Assembly: GCA_024137785.1 (NCBI GenBank)
Contig: JAHRHZ010000030.1
Span: 7,568,288-7,632,287 of the forward strand
DNA from: Ginglymostoma cirratum
Lineage: Eukaryota
DNA length: 64,000 nt
Direction: 5' to 3'
A program made the translations under genes and the position numbers. How positions within the stretch are numbered: the stretch's first letter is position 1; each line of letters opens with the position of its first letter. Below, piece after piece: positions 333-59,433 of the stretch. The notes below the pieces were generated by a model. That model made no database searches and was not told the origin of the DNA. It saw only the letters and a list, made by a program, of their open reading frames with translations.

Positions 333-1080
333 GAGATAACAAGGTGTAGAGCTGGATGAACACAGCAGGCCAAGCAGCATCATGGGAGCAGGAAAGCTTG
401 ATGTTTCGGGCCTAGACCCCGCTTTCAGAAATGGGGGAGGGGAAGGGGTTCTGAAACAAATAGGGAGAGAAGGGAGGCGGGTAGAAGATGGATAGAGGAG
501 AAGATAGGTGGAGAGGAGACAGACAAGTCAAAGAGGAGGGGATGGAGCCAGTAAAGGTGAGTGCAGGTGGGGAGGATGGACAGGTCAAGGGGGTGGGATG
601 AGGTTAGTAGGTAGGAAATGGGGGTGTGGCTTGAGGTGGGAGGAGGGGATAGGTGAGAACAAGAACAGGTTAGGGAGGCGGGGATGAGCTGGGCTGGTTT
701 TGGGATGTGGTTGGGGGAGGGGAGATTTTGAAGCTTGTGAAATCCACATTGATACCATTGGGCTGTAGGGTTCCCAGGCTGAATATGATTTGCTGTTCCT
801 GCAGCCTTCGGGTGGCATCGTTGTGGCACTGCAGGAGGCCCAGGATGGACATGTCGTCTGAGGAATGGGAGGGGGAGTTGAAATGGTTCGCGACTGGGAG
901 GCGCAGTTGTTTATTGCAAACCGAGCGCAGGTGGTCTGCAAAGCGGTCCCCAAGCCTGCGCTTGGTTTCCCTGATGTAGAGGAGGCCACAACGGGTACAG
1001 CGGATGCAGTATACCACATCTGCTTGATGTGGAAAGTCTTCTTGGCACTTGGGATGAGGGTGAGGGAGGATGCGTGGGGA
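333..1080 (-). repeat. Inverted copy of the PLE 3' end (GIY-YIG C-terminus, 3' UTR, hammerhead region); reverse complement of ~3160-3940
   Basis: Minus ORFs 585..1091 and 670..1266 repeat the peptides of plus ORFs near 3149-3744; this copy lacks the terminal ~33 nt tail found at 3941-3973. Confidence 0.93.
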
Positions 1081-2969
1081 TGCTGCTTCACCCATCACTG
1101 AAGTAGGCGCAACTCCGTCCACTGACGCAACCCCACCCACTGCTGACGCCAGCGCAACTCCACCCACAGCCGACACTGACGCTGACATCGCTCCGCCCAC
1201 CACCTCCACAGCCAGCAGCTCCAGAGGAGACAGCAACACTGAGCCCTGCCAAGTCTTCACCATCACCTCCCCCCTACTGAGGACAAACGGTCAGTCCTCA
1301 GTAAGGGGCTCACCTTTGTCCCCCTCCACCCACATATCAACGAATACCGGTCATGTTTGGACATTGGACATTGAGCAGTTTTTCCGTTGCCTTTGCCTCC
1401 GCCTCCACGCTTACGACTTCAACCGTGAACCTAACCCTCCCTCTGCTGACCCCTTCTCCCACCGCCAACACAAGCCGCCCTCCTGGACACCACCCCAAGG
1501 CCTCCTACCCTCCCTCGATCTCTTCATTTCCAACTGCCGTCAAGACATCAATCGCCTCAACCTGTCCACCCCTCTCACCCACTCCAGCCTCTTGCCTGCA
1601 GAACGTGCAGCCCTCCGCTCCAATCCCAACCTCACCCTACAATCCACGGACAAGGAAGGCGCAGTTGTAGTATAGCGCACTGACCTCTACATCGCTGAGG
1701 CCAGGCGCCATCTCTCCGACACCACCACCTACCACCCCCTGGATCATGACCCCACCCCCGAGCACCAAACCATCCACAACCTCATCACCTCAGGTGACCT
1801 CCCACCTACAGCCTCCAACCTCATTGTTTCCCAACCCCGCACTGCGCGCTTCTATCTCCTTCCCAAAATCCACAAACCTGACTGACCTGGTTGACCCATT
1901 GTCTCTGCCTGTTCCTGCCCCACCCGAACTTATCTCCACCTATCTCGACTCCATTTTCTCCACCTTGGTCCAGGAACTCCCTACCTACGTCCGTGACGCC
2001 ACCCACTTCCTCCAGAACTTCCAATTCCCCGGTCCCCAACACCTCATTTTTACTATGGACGTCTAGTCCCTATACACCTGCGTTCCCCATGCAGATGTCC
2101 TAAAGGCCCTCCGCTGCTTCCTGTCCCGCAGGCCTGACCAGTCCCCCTCCACTGACACCCTCATCTGCTTAGCTGAACTCGTCCTCACCCTCAACAACTT
2201 TTCTTTCAATTCCTCCCACTTCCTACAGACAAAGGGGGTGGCCATGGGTACCCGCATGGGCCCAAGCTATGCCTGCCTCTTTGTAGGTTACGTGGAACAA
2301 TCCCTCTTCCGTACCTACACTGGCCCTAAACCCCACCTCTTTCCCCCGTTACATTGATGACTGTATCGATGCCACCTTGTGCTTCCACGAGGAGCTTGGA
2401 CAGTTCATCCACTTCACCAACACCTTCCACCCCAACCTGAAGTTCACCTGGACCATCTCTAACACCTCTCTCACCTTTCTGGACCGCTGTCTCCATCTCC
2501 GGGCAACGACCTAGAAACCGATATCCACTTCAAGCCCACAGACTCCCACGGCTACATCGAATACACCTCCTCCCACCCACCTTCCTGCAAAAATGCCATC
2601 CCCTATTCCCAATTCCTTCGCCTCTGCCGCATCTGCTCCCTGGATGAGGCATTCCACCCCCATACATCACAGATGTCTTCGTTCTTCAAGGACTGCAACT
2701 CTTCGCCTCCCCCCCCCCACCTCACGCGCCCCCCCCCCCCCCCCGCAGTGGTCAAGAACTCCCTCGACCGTGTCTCCCGCATTTCCTGCAACTCGTCCCT
2801 CACACCCCGTCCCCGTAATAACAACCAAAAAAGAATCCCCCTCGTCCTTCACGTACCACCCCACCAACTGCCGGATCCAACACATCATCCTTCGACACTT
2901 CCGCCATCTGCAATCCGACCCCACCACCAAAGACATTTTTCCCTCCCCACCCTTGTCTGCTTTAGGGAC

Positions 2970-3075
2970 CGCTCTCTCTCGCGCTCTCTCTCGCGCTCTC
3001 TCTCGCGCTCTCTCTCGCNNNNNNNNNNGCGCTCTCTCTCGCGCTCTCTCTCGCGCTCTCTCTCGCGCTCTCTCT
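2970..3075. repeat. 12-nt tandem repeat (CGCTCTCTCTCG)n inside the PLE ORF, spanning a 10-N gap (3019-3028)
   Basis: Directly visible. Confidence 0.9.
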
Positions 3076-3845
3076 GTGACTCCCTTGTCCGCTCCACAGA
3101 CCCCTCCAGCCCCACCACACGTGGCACTTTTCCCTGCAACCGCAGGAAGTGCTACACCTGCCCCCACACCACCTCCCTCACCCCCCCATCCCAGGCCCCA
3201 AGAAGACTTTCCACATCAAGCAAATGTGGTATACTGCATCCGCTGTACCCGTTGTGGCCTCCTCTACATCGGGGAAACCAAGCGCAGGCTTGGGGACTGC
3301 TTTGCAGACCACCTGCGCTCGGTTCACAATAAACAACTGTGCCTCCCAGTCGTGAACCATTTCAACTCCCCTCCCATTCCTCAGTTGACGTGTCCATCCT
3401 GGGCCTCCTGCAGTGCCACAACGATGCCACCTGAAGGCTGCAGGAACAGCCAATCATATTCAGCCTGGGAACCCTGCAGCCCAATGGCATCAATGTGGAT
3501 TTCACAAGCTTCAAAATCTCCCCTCCCACTACCGCATCCCAAAACCAGCCCAGCTCGTACCCGCCTCCCTAACCTGTTCTTCCTCTCACCTATCCCCTCC
3601 CCCCACCTCAAGCCGCACCCCATTTCCTACCTACTAACCGCATCCCGCCCCCTTGACCTGTCCGTTCTTCCATGGACTGACCTATCTCCTCCCTACGTCC
3701 CCACCTGCACTCACCTTTACTGGCTCCATCCCCGCCTCTTTTGACTTGTCTGTCTCCTCTCCACCTATCTTCTCCTCTATCCATCTTCTATCAGCCTCCC
3801 CCTCTCTCCCTATTTATTTCAGAACCCCCTTCCCCTCCCCCATTT

Positions 3846-3873
3846 CTGATGAAGGGTCTAGGCCCGGAACATC
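3846..3873 (+). ncRNA. Degenerate minimal type I hammerhead ribozyme motif in the PLE 3' terminal repeat
   Basis: CTGATGA-A-GGGT-CTAG-GCCC-GGAA-CA-TC; GAAA box mutated to GGAA, so probably inactive. Confidence 0.65.
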
Positions 3874-3973
3874 AAGCTTTCCTGCTCCTCTGATACTGCT
3901 TGCCCTGCTGTGTTCATCCAGCTCTACACCTTGTTATCTCGGATTCTCCAGCATCTGCAGTTCCTATTACCTC

Positions 3974-15301: not shown

Positions 15302-16368
15302 GTAGATGATCTTTCATCATGTGTAATTTAGCTGCAAATATCTTTATCTTGGATACATTATACTTTAGATATTTCTAATTGTGGCACTCAAATTTATTCA
15401 CAGTGTGAAGTGTCATTCCTTCAGGATTTAATCGTTGGAGATTTTGAAATTGTGTGTTTTTTAAAAAAAAAAAAAAATTCCTTTTAATCTCCTCTGTGAA
15501 TCTATACATTCTTTGTATAAATGCACTGTCTTTCTATAGTTGATATTAACAATGAATTTACCCAGTCTAACTTGCAATTTATCTGGTACATATGCAGTGA
15601 TAATTATCAGAAAGGTTGTTGCTTGTTCCGTTCTGTCGAGTCTCAGGTGCCCTTTTCCCGCAGTACGTTGGTATCAACTCTTGCTTTTAGCAACTTACTT
15701 ACAGACATTTACAAAATCTTAACATGTAAAGCCAAAACTAAATAATGGCAGATGCTGCCCTTGGGTGCTTTGTTGTAGTAATTTATGATCCAATATAATT
15801 TAAAGAAGAGCAGTTTCAACTTCTTGAAAAGACATTCTTAGTTTCTTTAGATAGATTTAACACTGCTTTTTTATCATGGCTAATATTCTATAAATTAAGC
15901 TTCTATTTTAGAATAGTTTTGGCTCCTTTAAAATACTTATTTCAGATGCCATAAAAGACCATCAATGGGTTCTGACCCTGAGTGCTCCAAGTACTATGAC
16001 ATAAGTAAGTAAGCTTTTGAATACTTGCTTGTACATAGAGAAGAATAACATTGAAAAGTTTCAATCTTTTCTTCATTGTATACTATTCTGTGATGACCCT
16101 TTAGACTGTACTCAAGGGTTAGAACTTGCTTATGACACTGGGCAATTTCTGCAAAGTGTGTGTACTTAGTAGCGTCAACTATGACTCAGTTGGTAGCACT
16201 CTCGGCTCCACGTCAAAAGGCTAAGAGTTCAGGTTAGTTGTAGAGACTTAAGCCGAAGAGTTTAGGCTGATGCTCAGTCTTTCGGATAAGATGTTAAACC
16301 AAGAGACAACAAGGTGTAGAGCTGGATGAACACAGCAGGCCAGGCAGCATCAGAGGAGCAGGAAGGCT

Positions 16369-16396
16369 GACGTTTCGGGCCTAGACCCTTCTTCAG
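16369..16396 (-). ncRNA. Minimal type I hammerhead ribozyme motif, intact catalytic core
   Basis: Minus strand CUGAAGA-A-GGGU(CUAG)GCCC-GAAA-CG-UC; palindromic ACGU stem-loop III; stem I is weak (2 bp). Confidence 0.75.
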
Positions 16397-16408
16397 AAAA
16401 AACGTTAT

Positions 16409-16436
16409 CTGAAGAAGGATCTAGGCCCGAAACGTC
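16409..16436 (+). ncRNA. Minimal type I hammerhead ribozyme motif, intact core with one stem II mismatch
   Basis: CUGAAGA-A-GGAU(CUAG)GCCC-GAAA-CG-UC. Confidence 0.65.
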
Positions 16437-17015
16437 AGCCTTCCCGCTCCTCTGATGCTGCTTGGCCTGCTGTGTTCATCCAGCTCTACGCCTTGTTGTC
16501 TCAGATTCTCCAGCATCTGCAGTTCCTACTATCTCAGAAACATGTTAAACCAAGGCCCAGTTTGCTCTATTCCAGTGGCTGAGAAAGATACCATGGCACT
16601 ATTTCAAAGAAGAATAGTAGATTTATTCCTGATTTTTGAGAACAATATTCATTCCTCAATCAACATCAATATGAAACAGTATTATGAGATGGAGACAGAC
16701 AACTAAACCAAATCAGACTTTTAACCTCTGTATTCACAAACAGTAAAATTTAAAACCTTCAAACACCCTCAAAAATGACCCCATTGGTTCCTGACCAGAC
16801 TTCTGAGTAACTAAACTCAGAGACTTTGCAAATAATCAATTCTCAACATCAGTTTATAGCGTCTGTAAAACACTTAACAATTTATCAACAATATAGTAAC
16901 GTTAGTCAAACAAAATTAAGCAACAAAGTAATTTAACTGGTCTATGCTATAAACAAAAAAAACTACTTCTACTGTTTTTAGCTTCATTCACAGAAAAGAC
17001 CTAACTAAAAGTTAA

Positions 17016-17365
17016 GGAGGCATGGTGGCTCAGTGGTTAGCACCGCTTCCTTTCAGTGCCAGGAATTCTGGTTCGATTCCAGCCTCCGATGACTGTTTGT
17101 GTGGAATTTGCGTATTCTCCCCGTATCTGAGTTGGTTTCCTCCGGGAGCACTAGTTTCCTCCCACAGTCCAAAGATGTGCAGGTTAGATGGATTGGACAT
17201 GCTAAGTTGCCCATAGTATCCAGGGGTGTGTAGGTTGGTTGTAGTAGCCATAGAAAATGCAGGATTACCAGGATAGTGTAGGGTGTAGGTCTGGGTGGAA
17301 TGCTCTTCGAAGGATTGGTGTGGACGTGATGGGCTGAATGACATGTTTCTGCACTGTAGGAATTT
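17016..17365 (+). mobile_element. HE1-like V-SINE (tRNA-derived head, V domain, CR1/HER1-type tail)
   Basis: A box tggctcagtgg, B box ggttcgattcc, V core tttcctcccacagtccaaagatgtgcaggttag, tail tgggctgaatg...ttctgcactgtagg. Confidence 0.88.
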
Positions 17366-26189: not shown

Positions 26190-26449
26190 GGGACAGTAGG
26201 AACGGCCAATGCTGGAGAATCTGAGACAACAAGGTGCAGAGCTGGATGAACCCAGCAGGCCAAGCAGCATCAGAGGAGCAGGAAAGCAGACGTTTCGGGT
26301 CTAGACCCNNNNNNNNNNNNNNNNNNNNNNNNNNNNNNNNNNNNNNNNNNNNNNNNNNNNNNNNNNNNNNNNNNNNNNNNNNNNNNNNNNNNNNNNNNNN
26401 NNNNNNNNCTGCTCGGCCCGCTGTGTTCATCCAGCTCGACACCTTGTTA
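26190..26449. mobile_element. PLE-derived fold-back (family 1), tail on the left arm, centre hidden by a 100-N gap (26309-26408)
   Basis: Inverted arms on either side of the gap; TSD ttccaattttaact 26176-26189 / 26450-26463. Confidence 0.88.
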
Positions 26450-29400
26450 TTCCAATTTTAACTCCTGATTTACATTCTTTACAAACCTTTTAGCTCATTC
26501 AAACCTTACCCTATCCCACATCAAGTCCTGCTCACACATCACCTGTACTTTTTGACTCAGAACTCAGTACCATACGTTTCAAATTCTTATCTTGTATTTA
26601 AATCTTCCCATGATCTTGCCCTTTCCCGCAATCCTTTCATACTGCATTTCTCGAACTTTAGTCTCAAATAGAAAGTAATCCTTCAGTCATGAAGGTTTGA
26701 TCATCTAGAATTCTCTCCTTAAATTTCATCTTTTATTTCCTTCTCTCTCCCCCTTTAGGATTATCCCTAAAACCCACGACTTGAACTTCATTTAATCGCT
26801 CCTCTTTATTGTTTCTGTAATCACATCTTTGTGGAAATCCTTTGGATATGGCTCAATGTTAAAGATTCACACCACCTTTAATGATTATACTTCCAGTTGC
26901 CTTTGTGTGATGCTGTAAGAATCCCCACGCCACCACTTCAAAATCTGTCTCTTCAACTCTATCTCCTTCTCTTTGACCAGGCTTATAGTTGGTCATTATT
27001 GGATTTCCTTCTTTGACTTTGGTCACCAACTTTATTTTTCTCTCATGCACCTCAGAAGTAGCTTAGAAAACTATTTTACATGAAACGTACTATACGGATG
27101 CAAGCTGTGTTGTTTTGAAAGAATGAGTGGCCTGAACTTGTATCGGGAAAAAGGAGCTCAATTTGGGCTGTTATCTCAGCTTAACGTGTCTTGTATTTAT
27201 TGTTAAAGCTTACTCTGTTTGTTTAGGAGTATTTTTCCTTCTTGGTAATTTATGGTTATTGAAGGATTAATTTCATGAAAAGCACTCCAGTGAAGGCTAA
27301 GAAGGAAAATATTGCAGTGGAAAATGCCCACGTTAAATGATAACGATGGCACAATAATGTGTTTGCAAATGATTCTACATCAAGATACAAATAACGTTTT
27401 AAATGTATTGTCAGAAAAACAGATTTGGTATGTCGGTTTCAAATTATTAGAATCTATCTTGAGTTTTTAAATTTGAGTTTAGACTTCCCAATGGTAGTGA
27501 GCATTTCTTTTAAAACATTTTGCCCATTGATCAACTTGGACATGTCACAATATCAAGTCAATCTTCAAAACGTGAAATGTCAGCCTTCTGATGCTGCCTA
27601 GCCTGCTGTATTCCTCCAGCTCCACACTTTGTTATTACTGTCTGTACCAGTGTGTTTGAAACACCCACATCATTAGTTCAGGGAGTGAGTTCACTAAGAA
27701 CTGATTAATTAGACAGTAGTAGAGTTTCTGCCATGAAACTACTAATAATAGACTCAACTATATATTTTGGGTTTTGTTTCAAGCTTTCTTTTAAAGGTAT
27801 TTTCCTATTGCATCAAGTCCTATTTCAGTAGCCTTGACTCCCACTTATGAGGCTGCAATCCAAAAATTAAATTGGTAGTGTTTGCAGTCAGGCAGACCCT
27901 GTTGTCTTGGCCTTTTGTTCTCTGTGAATTCACACAAGTTTACTTTTTGGTTAAAAACCTACGGAGAAGGACCACAAATATGAATCCAGCACCATGTGCA
28001 TCATATACAAACCGTTTTCTGAAACAAGGAATAATGGCAAAACTTAAACTAGTCAAAGCATAATGCTGCCTAGCCAGTGACACCCTCATCCCATTAATGA
28101 ATAAAAAAAATGACATGAACTTGTGACTTCACCAAGCTCTTGAAGGAGAACATTGTTGTAGGAGGACGAACAATGCGTGTTGTGTACTGAACACTAACAG
28201 CTTCCAGTTGTTATGCTGGAGTGTTTACTCTTCAGAAATTGCAGGGCTGAGATCATGGGGAAAAGTACATATTTATTTTGTCAAACCTAACACACAATAC
28301 CACTTTAAATTAGGATGCTGCATAATCTAATTAGTGCATAAATATGATGTACATAGAAATATTGGGCAGTTGTTTATGCCTCTTACACTGGCATGTAAAA
28401 ATTTTACAAATTTTAAGTAGGTAAATATATGGTACTTGCTTTAAGTTCTTGGCCAATGAACCACTTCACTGATTACTATGATTTATTATGATTTTTGCTT
28501 TGAAAGGTCTGGAACATGTACAAATATCTTTATACATTTTATGTATGATCATTAATAATTACAATGAGAATAGGAATTTATAATAGCACCTTTAATGTAA
28601 ACGAGTCCAAAAGTGTTAGAAATTAAGCAATCCAAGTGGACAAATTGACAAAGAAAGGGAGACTGGTAAAGATTTAAGAGATGAGGATCAAGGAATATGC
28701 CGGGTATACTGAATATGACTTTGTCAATGTTTCTATCCCAATTTCATTGTCAAGCACTTATCAACCTGACATGCTGATGCTGATCGCAGGGGTAGTCTTG
28801 GCAGCCAAGAAAAATCCCACAACACCGTAGAAATTAGATTTACATGAAAATGTGAAGCATATATTTAAATCATGAAAAATTTAATCTTGAAATGTTTCTT
28901 TATCTAGCAATAATTTGATAATGGTTTGATTTAAATTGTATTACGTTGGTTGTGACAAATCTAATGCAAACACTGTATGTTTATTGCTGAATGGTTGCAT
29001 GCTCAAAAGTTTAACTTGTATACTTTGGTTATGAGGGTGTGAAAATTAATTTCAGAATTTGCTGCCTTGCCCTGTTCCCAACTGAGGTCCTTTAGTGACC
29101 ACTCAAGGGCCTAACCCTGCTGGGGGACAATTCTTTCCATTCCAGATAGGCATATACATTCTCATCTTATCCAACTGGGTAAACCAGTGCAGCCAGGCTT
29201 GCGAGGTAGTGGGTTTGGCCCTTATTCTGCACTAATCTGTGTCTAATTAAGAACCCCCTAATAGCCATGTTCTGCCCTTCCCTCCCCAAGTAACCATTGC
29301 CCCATGAAGCCCTCCTAACAACATTTTTTTTCTATAGGTAGTTATCCATCCTGGCAGTCCAGGAATATTGTATTAGAACAAGCTACAGCCTCTGATTAGG

Positions 29401-56260: not shown

Positions 56261-56805
56261 AGAGATAAAAGGTACTGCAGATGCTGGAGAATCCGAGATA
56301 ACAAGGCGTGGGGCTGGATGAACACAGCAGGCCAAGCAGCATCATAGGAGCAGNNNNNNNNNNNNNNNNNNNNNNNNNNNNNNNNNNNNNNNNNNNNNNN
56401 NNNNNNNNNNNNNNNNNNNNNNNNNNNNNNNNNNNNNNNNNNNNNNNNNNNNNNNNNNNNNNNNNNNNNNNNNNNNNNNNNNNNNNNNNNNNNNNNNNNN
56501 NNNNNNNNNNNNNNNNNNNNNNNNNNNNNNNNNNNNNNNNNNNNNNNNNNNNNNNNNNNNNNNNNNNNNNNNNNNNNNNNNNNNNNNNNNNNNNNNNNNN
56601 NNNNNNNNNNNNNNNNNNNNNNNNNNNNNNNNNNNNNNNNNNNNNNNNNNNNNNNNNNNNNNNNNNNNNNNNNNNNNNNNNNNNNNNNNNNNNNNNNNNN
56701 NNNNNNNNNNNNNNNNNNNNNNNNNNNNNNNNNNNNNNNNNNNNNNNNNNNNNCCTATGCTGCTGCTTGGCCTGCTGTGTTCATCCAGCCCCACGCCTTG
56801 TTATC
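56261..56805. mobile_element. PLE-derived fold-back (family 1), tail on the left arm, centre hidden by a 400-N gap (56354-56753)
   Basis: Arms share the private variant aaggcgtggggctgg / ccagccccacgcctt; TSD ttaaatttaaaat 56242-56254 / 56806-56818. Confidence 0.9.
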
Positions 56806-59433
56806 TTAAATTTAAAATGATGCATTTAGAATGAGATCGCAAGGCAAAGAAGGTTGTCATGGGAGAAGTGCTAGTCATAAGCATTTCCTTACAGGACTTT
56901 AGATTAAGTTTGTATAAGCCCTACCAGAAAAAGGACGTGGAGGCGTTCTTTGACATCTGATAAAATAGCAAGACAAATAAATTGATTGAATGAAAACTGG
57001 GTAGTGCCCAAGCAAAGTAAATTAACATGTAGGAGCACTTGAAATTTATACTTAATTGCCAGCGAATGTTATGATGGGTTATGTTATGAAGGGTTATGAT
57101 GATGTAAGCCAGGCTGCTCTGATGTATTCAGGTAAGGTTTTGGAATTTGAGGAAACAGACAGGTTGAACCTACACTAAATTTGAAAGGCTTAAACAAAGT
57201 ATAACAAACTCTTTATTAACCAGCTCCTATGGCATTAGGAGTATGCCAGTTGATCAAATGTTCTGGATAATCAAGAGGTCCACATAATCATTGTAAAAAC
57301 ACACACTAAGTAATAGAAATTCTGGGGAGGTGGGTGTTATGCACATCACTGTTATACTTTACTTACAGCAGTAATCATTTAAATAATAAGGCAACTTCGC
57401 CTTAAATAAAATTTACCAGCAGAGAGCCTTCTCGCTTGCACCCTCAGCTGACTACTTGGACATCGCAGAGATTACGATAAACACTGAATTTTGGCATTTG
57501 TGTATATAATTTTTGCAGGTTTATCAAGAGTACTGGTCATAAAGTGCTGTTAAAACAGTTTGCTGTAATTTTGATAGGTTAAAACAAGAATTAGGAGTAA
57601 ATACTAAGTATGAGACTCTCTGATAATTCCCTTAGAATTTAAAACTTCTTACCTTTTCTAATAAGAACAAAGGTTATGCTGGGTGCCTGAAAGGGTTGGT
57701 GGGCAAGAAAGAGGCTGCAAGGATAGGTATAGAAAAGAAAGAGGATGTGAGGGTGGTTTGGTAAGAGAAGCTACAAGGGGGTGACTGGGAGAGGGAGAGC
57801 TGCAAATAGGGTGGAGGAGGAGGAGGTTGAGATGGCAGAGAAAAGGGAAGCTGCAGGAGGCAGTGGGAGCAAGTTGGGGGGAGGTGGGCAGGGTGGCAAG
57901 AGAGGGAAGCTACAAAAGATGAGGCATTGAAAGGAGGTTGAAGAAAGAACAGTTTAAGACACATGAACAAATGGAATGATCCGCTAGCTAGGAGCCATGA
58001 AAATTTGAAATTGTTATGGTAATGAATTGCTTGTAAATAATTTTGGAATCTCTATTTCTGGCTGCGTTTGTTCAGGAGCTTCTGTATGAAGAAGAATATA
58101 TTGGATGTTATTTTTTTTAAAAAACTGTCTACAGTTCATTTTTATCTGAGAGGCAGTACAAAGGTGAAAACTGCCAAATTAAAATTTTCCAGCCTTGTGC
58201 ATATACAATGAAAACTCATTAGTTGTGACTTTGCCAGTCTGTAAAAGGTGTATTTGTGTTACTATCTCATCCATTTGTTACAATGTTGCAACCCTCTAAA
58301 TTTCAACAGCTGGAAGAAAACCAGTTTTTTTCCATCCCAGGTGGGCCTTATCAATGTCCCTTAATGTTGTTTGAAATTATACCAGCTGTTTCGCACCCAC
58401 AAGCTAAAAGACAGTAAACGCACAAGAACACCACTTGCAAGTTTCCTTCCAAGCTACACATAACCCTTAGTTGGAGCCATATCACTGCTTCTTTACTTGC
58501 AGATTCAAAATCCTAGAACTGCCCTCCTAACAACACTGTGGATCTACTATACCAAATGGTCCGCAACACCTCTAAAAGGTGGCTCCCTTCTCAGTGACAA
58601 TTAAGAACTTTTTTTTATTCCACTTACTGTTTCTCAGACCACCTGAAATGTCTGAACTCTATTTGTGTTGAATTGTAAACTAGTTTTCAACAAATCACAG
58701 CAGATCAGAGATTGTGGTTTCAACTTTGAACTCCTCTCATAATTGCATTGACCCTATTCATTTGAGTTAGGATGAATATCAGACAAGGGAAATCTTAATT
58801 TAAGTACCTTTTTGTCTTGATTCAAACCTACATGCTTCTGTACCTTCAAAAATTGGGGGAATTGGTGAAATGGTGAAATGTTACTGTGTACGGTTAAATG
58901 AAAAACATTGCATCTTATACTTCATGTTTAAACATGTTGAAAAATTATATTTCTGTTCATCTTGTATAATATAATTTTATGTTACTATAAGTTCAGCAAG
59001 GTGTGATGTGGAGTGGATGAAATTTCCATATGCCTGTGCCATGAAAAACATGCAGACTAATTATAGTTGATGTTTCAATATGTTAGTCTATCCAGAAAAA
59101 AATATTTTAAGATGTGTAAGATCAGGTAACAAGTCTGTTGGTAGTAATGTAGTGGGACCATTTTGGTACAGTTTAAGGTTATTGTACGTGCTTTACCATG
59201 ATTGGTATGTCAGCTTTGCAATTTTTCTTGCTTACGAATGGTCGAGGAAAAACAAATATACATTTGTATAGCTTCTTCATATCTTCAGGATGACCTAAAT
59301 TGTTTCATACTTAATGAATTGCTTTTGACCTTCAGTTGGTTCCTCTATAAATGAGGATTGGTTTAATTGTTTCATACTTGGAGGATGTGTGAATTATTTA
59401 ATCTGTCGCTAAGCTACTTTGTGTATTTTTCAG

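Follow-up and report, generated by a model that had tools for sequence, protein, structure and literature searches.

A Short Inverted Insert With Two Hammerhead Motifs in Ginglymostoma cirratum as a Probable Dead-End Product of Penelope-Like Element Insertion

The insert at positions 16291–16554 of the window (the whole 64,000-nucleotide stretch of Ginglymostoma cirratum contig JAHRHZ010000030.1 that was analyzed) is probably a one-off, dead-end product of the normal insertion of a Penelope-like element (PLE), and not a self-spreading ribozyme element. Both readings had been offered in a first-pass annotation, which described a fold-back with a hammerhead ribozyme motif on each strand and considered either a non-coding hairpin that spreads as its own non-autonomous element or a stereotyped product of abortive PLE integration. 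The second reading is supported by a unique junction, heterogeneous spacers, and a layout that is the same at all arm lengths. The first found no support, its hammerhead cores being predicted to be sequestered. The insert is a real, abundant, and ordinary feature of this genome.

The 238-bp insert is enclosed by a 13-bp TSD, ATGTTAAACCAAG, with copies at 16291–16303 and 16542–16554; a looser alignment of the two copies covers 16 nt with one mismatch. Its inverted-repeat arms (16303–16400 and 16405–16502) comprise 98 nt each and are 95% complementary, and the RNA fold of the insert has a z value of −24.8 relative to 200 shuffles. CUGAAGA boxes are located at 16409–16415 on the plus strand and at 16396–16390 on the minus strand, and the series CUGAAGA-A-stem II-GAAA-CG-UC was found on both strands. 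The head-to-head arms, the one-sided tail, the TSD, and the hammerhead boxes in both polarities were thereby confirmed as first annotated, with the short spacer measured as 12 nt (16397–16408). The arms do share variants, namely a G at +90, which is carried by both insert arms and by 7/129 family arms, and a C at +32, which is a common subfamily allele (66/132). Within their first 88 positions, the two arms differ at four. The features are listed below; for arm positions, the C of CUGA counts as +1.

16174..16290, plus strand: older dispersed repeat, 5' part, SINE-like
16291..16303, plus strand: left TSD copy, 13 bp; its final G doubles as arm position +94
16303..16399, minus strand: untailed arm, spanning approximately −2 to +94 of the PLE pLTR; outer end is the putative RT start site 1
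16369..16396, minus strand: minimal hammerhead motif, stem I of 2 pairs
16397..16408, no strand: junction between the CUGA boxes, 12 nt, unique in the genome
16408..16502, plus strand: sense arm, pLTR from 0 to +94
16409..16436, plus strand: minimal hammerhead motif, stem II G>A mismatch at 16419, stem I of 1 pair; nominal cut after 16436
16503..16541, plus strand: PLE tail of 33 nt (+95 to +127) plus 6 nt; outer end is the putative RT start site 2
16542..16554, plus strand: right TSD copy
16555..16685, plus strand: older dispersed repeat, 3' part
333..3973, no strand: long-armed sister insertion of the same layout, 15-bp TSD with one mismatch
333–1079, minus strand: sister insertion, untailed arm
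3068–3973, plus strand: sister insertion, tailed arm, including a broken GIY-YIG region

One other copy of the older dispersed repeat aligns contiguously across both flanks of the insert (65–69%) and lacks the insert. This single uninterrupted copy hints that the insert may have split an older repeat, as had been annotated; the label given to that host repeat, Deu-SINE, is tentative. A second tRNA-like SINE head is present at 17017–17300, which may resemble shark HE1.

Each arm of the insert corresponds to the pLTR, with its hammerhead, of a Penelope-like element that encodes RT and GIY-YIG. In the natural frames of two genomic copies of this parent, a GIY-YIG profile matched above the cutoff (E 3.4e-6); RT-like motifs are visible in natural frames as well, with a weak RVT_1 match below the cutoff (E 0.009). 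The arm is contiguous with an ORF comprising RT plus a C-terminal GIY-YIG, as expected of an EN+ PLE, so that the annotated PLE parentage holds. Arm and tail also precede the 5'UTR of the parent, and the arm is therefore the pLTR; what had been called the PLE 3' terminus is indeed a PLE end, better described as the pLTR at the 5' start of the transcription unit. The 6 nt past the tail of the insert resemble the continuation of the parental 5'UTR. Judged by motif likeness, the parent presumably belongs to the Penelope/Poseidon clade. In the sister insertion at 333–3973, the arm terminates a longer copy whose upstream portion encodes the broken GIY-YIG region; this insertion also holds fragments of the PLE ORF, together with a (CT/CG) microsatellite.

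The occurrence of such arms was determined in a census of 1,034,270 bases (1.03 Mb), made up of four non-random blocks including the window, with two of six sampled 200-kb blocks excluded as all N. Among 137 terminal arms, 86 make 43 head-to-head pairs within 3 kb, compared to nine tail-to-tail and seven same-direction neighbours. One tailed and one untailed arm were combined in 41/43 pairs, and a TSD of 12–17 bp flanked 30/43 pairs versus 21/1806 mismatched flank pairs. A few pairs with kilobase gaps and without TSD are probably chance neighbours. Arm lengths extend to approximately 1 kb in the census pairs and, at separately picked loci of the same layout, to 2.5 kb. Short fold-backs account for 29 census pairs, which by crude extrapolation corresponds to some 1e5 per genome (1.2e5 by scaling). 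When the insert served as query, 2170 candidates were obtained, and all 40 that were scored (40/40) were near-full-length fold-backs, in a set biased toward query-like copies. Additional arms were found approximately 120 to 1,300 bases off, not flush, at 14/45 targeted fold-backs; these are putative separate insertions. Assembly gaps are found at these hairpins as well: two of the four N gaps in the window are inside head-to-head pairs, and the assembly seems to break at hairpins of this type. The head-to-head pairs at window positions 26195–26450 and 56262–56812 each have an assembly gap between their arms, and the first is flanked by a 14-bp TSD.

The annotation of minimal type I hammerhead motifs in the arms is supported by the core boxes on both strands, a stem II with G-C closing pair, and an NUH site at the insert. 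A hammerhead descriptor gave 51 matches in 1.03 Mb and none in the reversed sequence, and no match to Rfam reached the gathering score in the window. A stem I of ~4–5 bp was not found at the insert, where contiguous pairs number one (plus strand) and two (minus strand), and position −2/+31 is paired in only 3/89 family arms. For D. virilis, a variant with a 2-bp stem I is reported in the available part of one study (PMC4209133). Stem II pairs are kept in 115–122 of 123–126 arms. Changes were one-sided only (U-G 97, U-A 25), no compensatory stem II changes were seen among these 123–126 arms, and source-level variants are located at N7, in loop II, and at one U-G/U-A pair. Such conservation suggests that stem II may be under constraint in the parent. 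A related, older family in the census carries CUGAGGA; its loop II is longer, its stem III has a 3-nt insert, and its stem I comprises 4 bp. This family is a better ribozyme candidate than the family of the window.

Within the hairpin, the predicted cost of opening the core with stem II is 50.6 kcal/mol (plus strand) and 52.9 kcal/mol (minus strand), with a predicted core unpaired probability of ≤0.003. Whichever strand is read, the antisense arm is transcribed ahead of the ribozyme. The hammerheads are predicted to be passengers, inactive in the hairpin. The 5' ends of the arms lie between −12 and +4 in 46/137 cases and between +25 and +35 in 7/137; as a peak of 5' ends at the cleavage site is absent, cleaved RNA did not serve as the main template. 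As monomers, minimal PLE hammerheads showed no activity in vitro, according to the available text of the same study (PMC4209133).

The junction of the insert occurs once in 4.36 Gb, with one mismatch allowed. At the 45 targeted loci, 35 spacers could be parsed, 33 of them distinct, and many include snippets of nearby arm sequence, unlike the shared spacers and diagnostic variants across loci that had been named as the sign of a propagating family. One near-palindromic spacer of 11 nt recurs 70 times. It is present in both the CUGAAGA and the CUGAUGA subfamilies and was therefore probably formed repeatedly; its two sides were concordant in 69/70 places, and about seven pairs of copies ~430 bp apart are apparent assembly doubles. 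Its recurrence would fit repeated joining through a terminal GC, which could follow cap copying. Subfamily alleles are common to partner arms (+32, p 1e-8; +17, p 2e-7): across 71 pairs, the +32 allele was present in both arms of 25 and in neither arm of 28, with 9 discordant. CpG-decay sites were not common to partner arms in the 71 pairs, and rare variants were present in both partners in 10/215 cases (1.1 expected by shuffling). The distance between arms was 7.2% within a locus and 9.1% between loci. Shared subfamily alleles together with so few shared rare variants indicate that both arms derive from one source and decayed separately, without wholesale conversion.

We propose that the insert arose by priming from both target strands during PLE insertion. 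A protein dimer would nick both strands of the target ~13–15 bp apart, and each 3' end would then prime cDNA synthesis on RNA of one source, one cDNA starting at ~+94 and one at ~+127 to +134, helped by 1–2 nt of pairing. On a 5'-proximal pLTR copy, both cDNAs would run off the RNA 5' end, that is, off a predicted transcription start 3–8 nt before CUGA, and joining of the cDNA ends would add bases that are untemplated or copied from local sequence.

The outer ends of the arms cluster at +88 to +96 (untailed) and at +126 to +137 (tailed). At these two clusters, the mean target microhomology was 1.5 and 1.8 nt, respectively, whereas shifted controls gave 0.35 and 0.5 nt (26 of 41 elements, exact TSD required, 30 query-like loci excluded). 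The untailed arm extends further 5' by >10 nt in 9/27 close pairs and the tailed arm in 7. This unequal reach fits two independent cDNAs, a pattern that asymmetric post-insertion deletions could mimic.

The boundary before CUGA is also found in near-full-length copies. A sense arm was obtained from 35 of 39 5'UTR-joined copies, which were picked by the sequence that follows the tail; it starts at −6 to 0 in 16, at −11 in one, far upstream in two, and inside the arm in 16. The boundary truly lies at about −3 to −8, because the reference carried a variant at −4. Several of these copies have an inverted arm directly upstream, and they belong to the CUGAUGA subfamily, not to the CUGAAGA subfamily of the window. 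The boundary site reads CCATTTC, which fits the initiator consensus YYANWYY. An extra G before the boundary was present at 12/17 ends or at 13/25 ends (p 0.04 for the latter), depending on the filter, and hints only weakly, and post hoc, at cap copying. An internal promoter is described for D. virilis Penelope in the part of PMC2377424 available. In raw RNA-seq reads, no discrete read ends (start or cleavage) were found, and both strands were equal. The unique flank of the insert was not covered by any of the three RNA-seq runs, which therefore say nothing on the insert locus and probably come from another source than this genome. The run-off step thus stands as an inference. Family sequence was abundant in one poly(A) run (47,251 reads from 24% of the run, strands equal).

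The same final layout and the same shared alleles would result if a single cDNA, primed at the tail site, folded at its 3' end and copied itself into the second arm. A similar self-priming idea appears in the available text of PMC3846280. Near-palindromic junctions at some loci, and arm starts within 10 nt of one another in 11/27 pairs, agree with this route. However, the untailed arm passes the supposed template 5' end in the 9/27 pairs noted above, by up to 556 nt, its outer end falls in the +88 to +96 cluster and shows microhomology to the target, and most spacers contain inserted snippets and are not palindromic. We consider this route unlikely. Short fold-backs might also be remnants of long inverted insertions that later lost their middle, or products of arm-to-arm conversion. 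Palindromes are unstable, and long inverted pairs are common; yet solo arms and the 5' end of 5'UTR-joined copies have the same pre-CUGA boundary, and the 10/215 rare variants common to partner arms speak against conversion, which leaves this explanation highly improbable.

The idea that the hairpin itself is a non-autonomous element, which would be copied into RNA and re-inserted whole while its ribozymes act in both polarities, could draw on at least 780 exact genome matches to a 30-base junction pattern (reversed control, 0), on the spacer found 70 times, on the mostly short copies of the CUGAAGA subfamily, and on family RNA from both strands. Against it stand the unique junction of the insert, the presence of the recurrent spacer in both subfamilies, the predicted folding costs and buried cores, the antisense arm transcribed ahead of each ribozyme, and the lack of a peak of 5' ends at the cleavage site, and we regard it as having very little chance of being correct. 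The excess of short copies (26 short to 11 long for CUGAAGA, 7 to 22 for CUGAUGA, p 4e-4) is without explanation under priming from both target strands. It might reflect a CUGAAGA subfamily fed largely by short, ORF-less pLTR RNA that would be mobilized in trans by the Penelope protein, with copies landing as hairpins via the same dual priming. This extension is rather doubtful; if true, it would amount to a non-autonomous family that records, throughout the genome, a strong-stop-like PLE intermediate. For the insert itself, dual priming during normal PLE insertion remains the preferred reading.

Both the inverted-copy-plus-tail layout and opposite-strand pairs of minimal hammerheads are already published. 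Canonical EN+ PLE units, as described in the available parts of PMC8557442 and PMC3846280, contain an inverted 5'-truncated copy and a 30–40 bp tail at one end. The insert resembles them in its head-to-head inverted pLTR, its one-sided 33-nt tail, its TSD, and a parent with RT and C-terminal GIY-YIG. It differs in that both arms are cut to ~100–130 nt and no ORF is present, and, relative to those descriptions, in very high copy number and a sharp pre-CUGA boundary. Dual minimal hammerheads on opposite strands, ~100–700 bp apart, were ascribed to truncated PLEs in Schistosoma in 2014 (PMC4209133, available text). They have in common with the insert the minimal type I motif, a bulged base before stem II, and a palindromic CG at stem III, whereas the insert has its cores separated by only 12 nt and a stem I of 1–2 bp, and the units are TSD-bounded. 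A search limited to the open-access literature did not find short palindromes of such kind described in sharks. Non-LTR retrozymes likewise carry type I hammerheads in small, PLE-related repeats that do not code for protein; in the accessible text of bioRxiv 10.64898/2026.07.22.740005, they form head-to-tail tandem arrays with same-strand ribozymes. The insert was not assigned to them, since its arms are inverted rather than in head-to-tail tandem; it is further distinguished by its TSDs and by ribozymes that are predicted unable to fold. Upon read-through, the hairpins could give double-stranded RNA.

The closest functional parallel concerns Poseidon PAc of the green anole (PMC11167929, as far as its text was available). 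The purified anole PLE protein, predicted to be dimeric, nicks and extends both strands in vitro, two start sites bound the tail, and ribozyme cleavage is not needed; the route proposed for the insert is alike in its two tail-bounding start sites, the extension of both strands, and an uncleaved RNA template. In that in vitro system, the start site is alike on both strands and initiation is termed non-homologous, unlike the pairing of one start of each kind and the short microhomology seen here, and joined head-to-head products such as the insert are not described in the portion of the paper available. The formation of PLE inverted repeats and tails was termed undefined (PMC8557442, in part), and the value of these loci is that of a large natural dataset on this process. 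The rule of one tailed and one untailed arm, the independent arm lengths, and the boundary ahead of the ribozyme yield testable predictions for the in vitro system already established.
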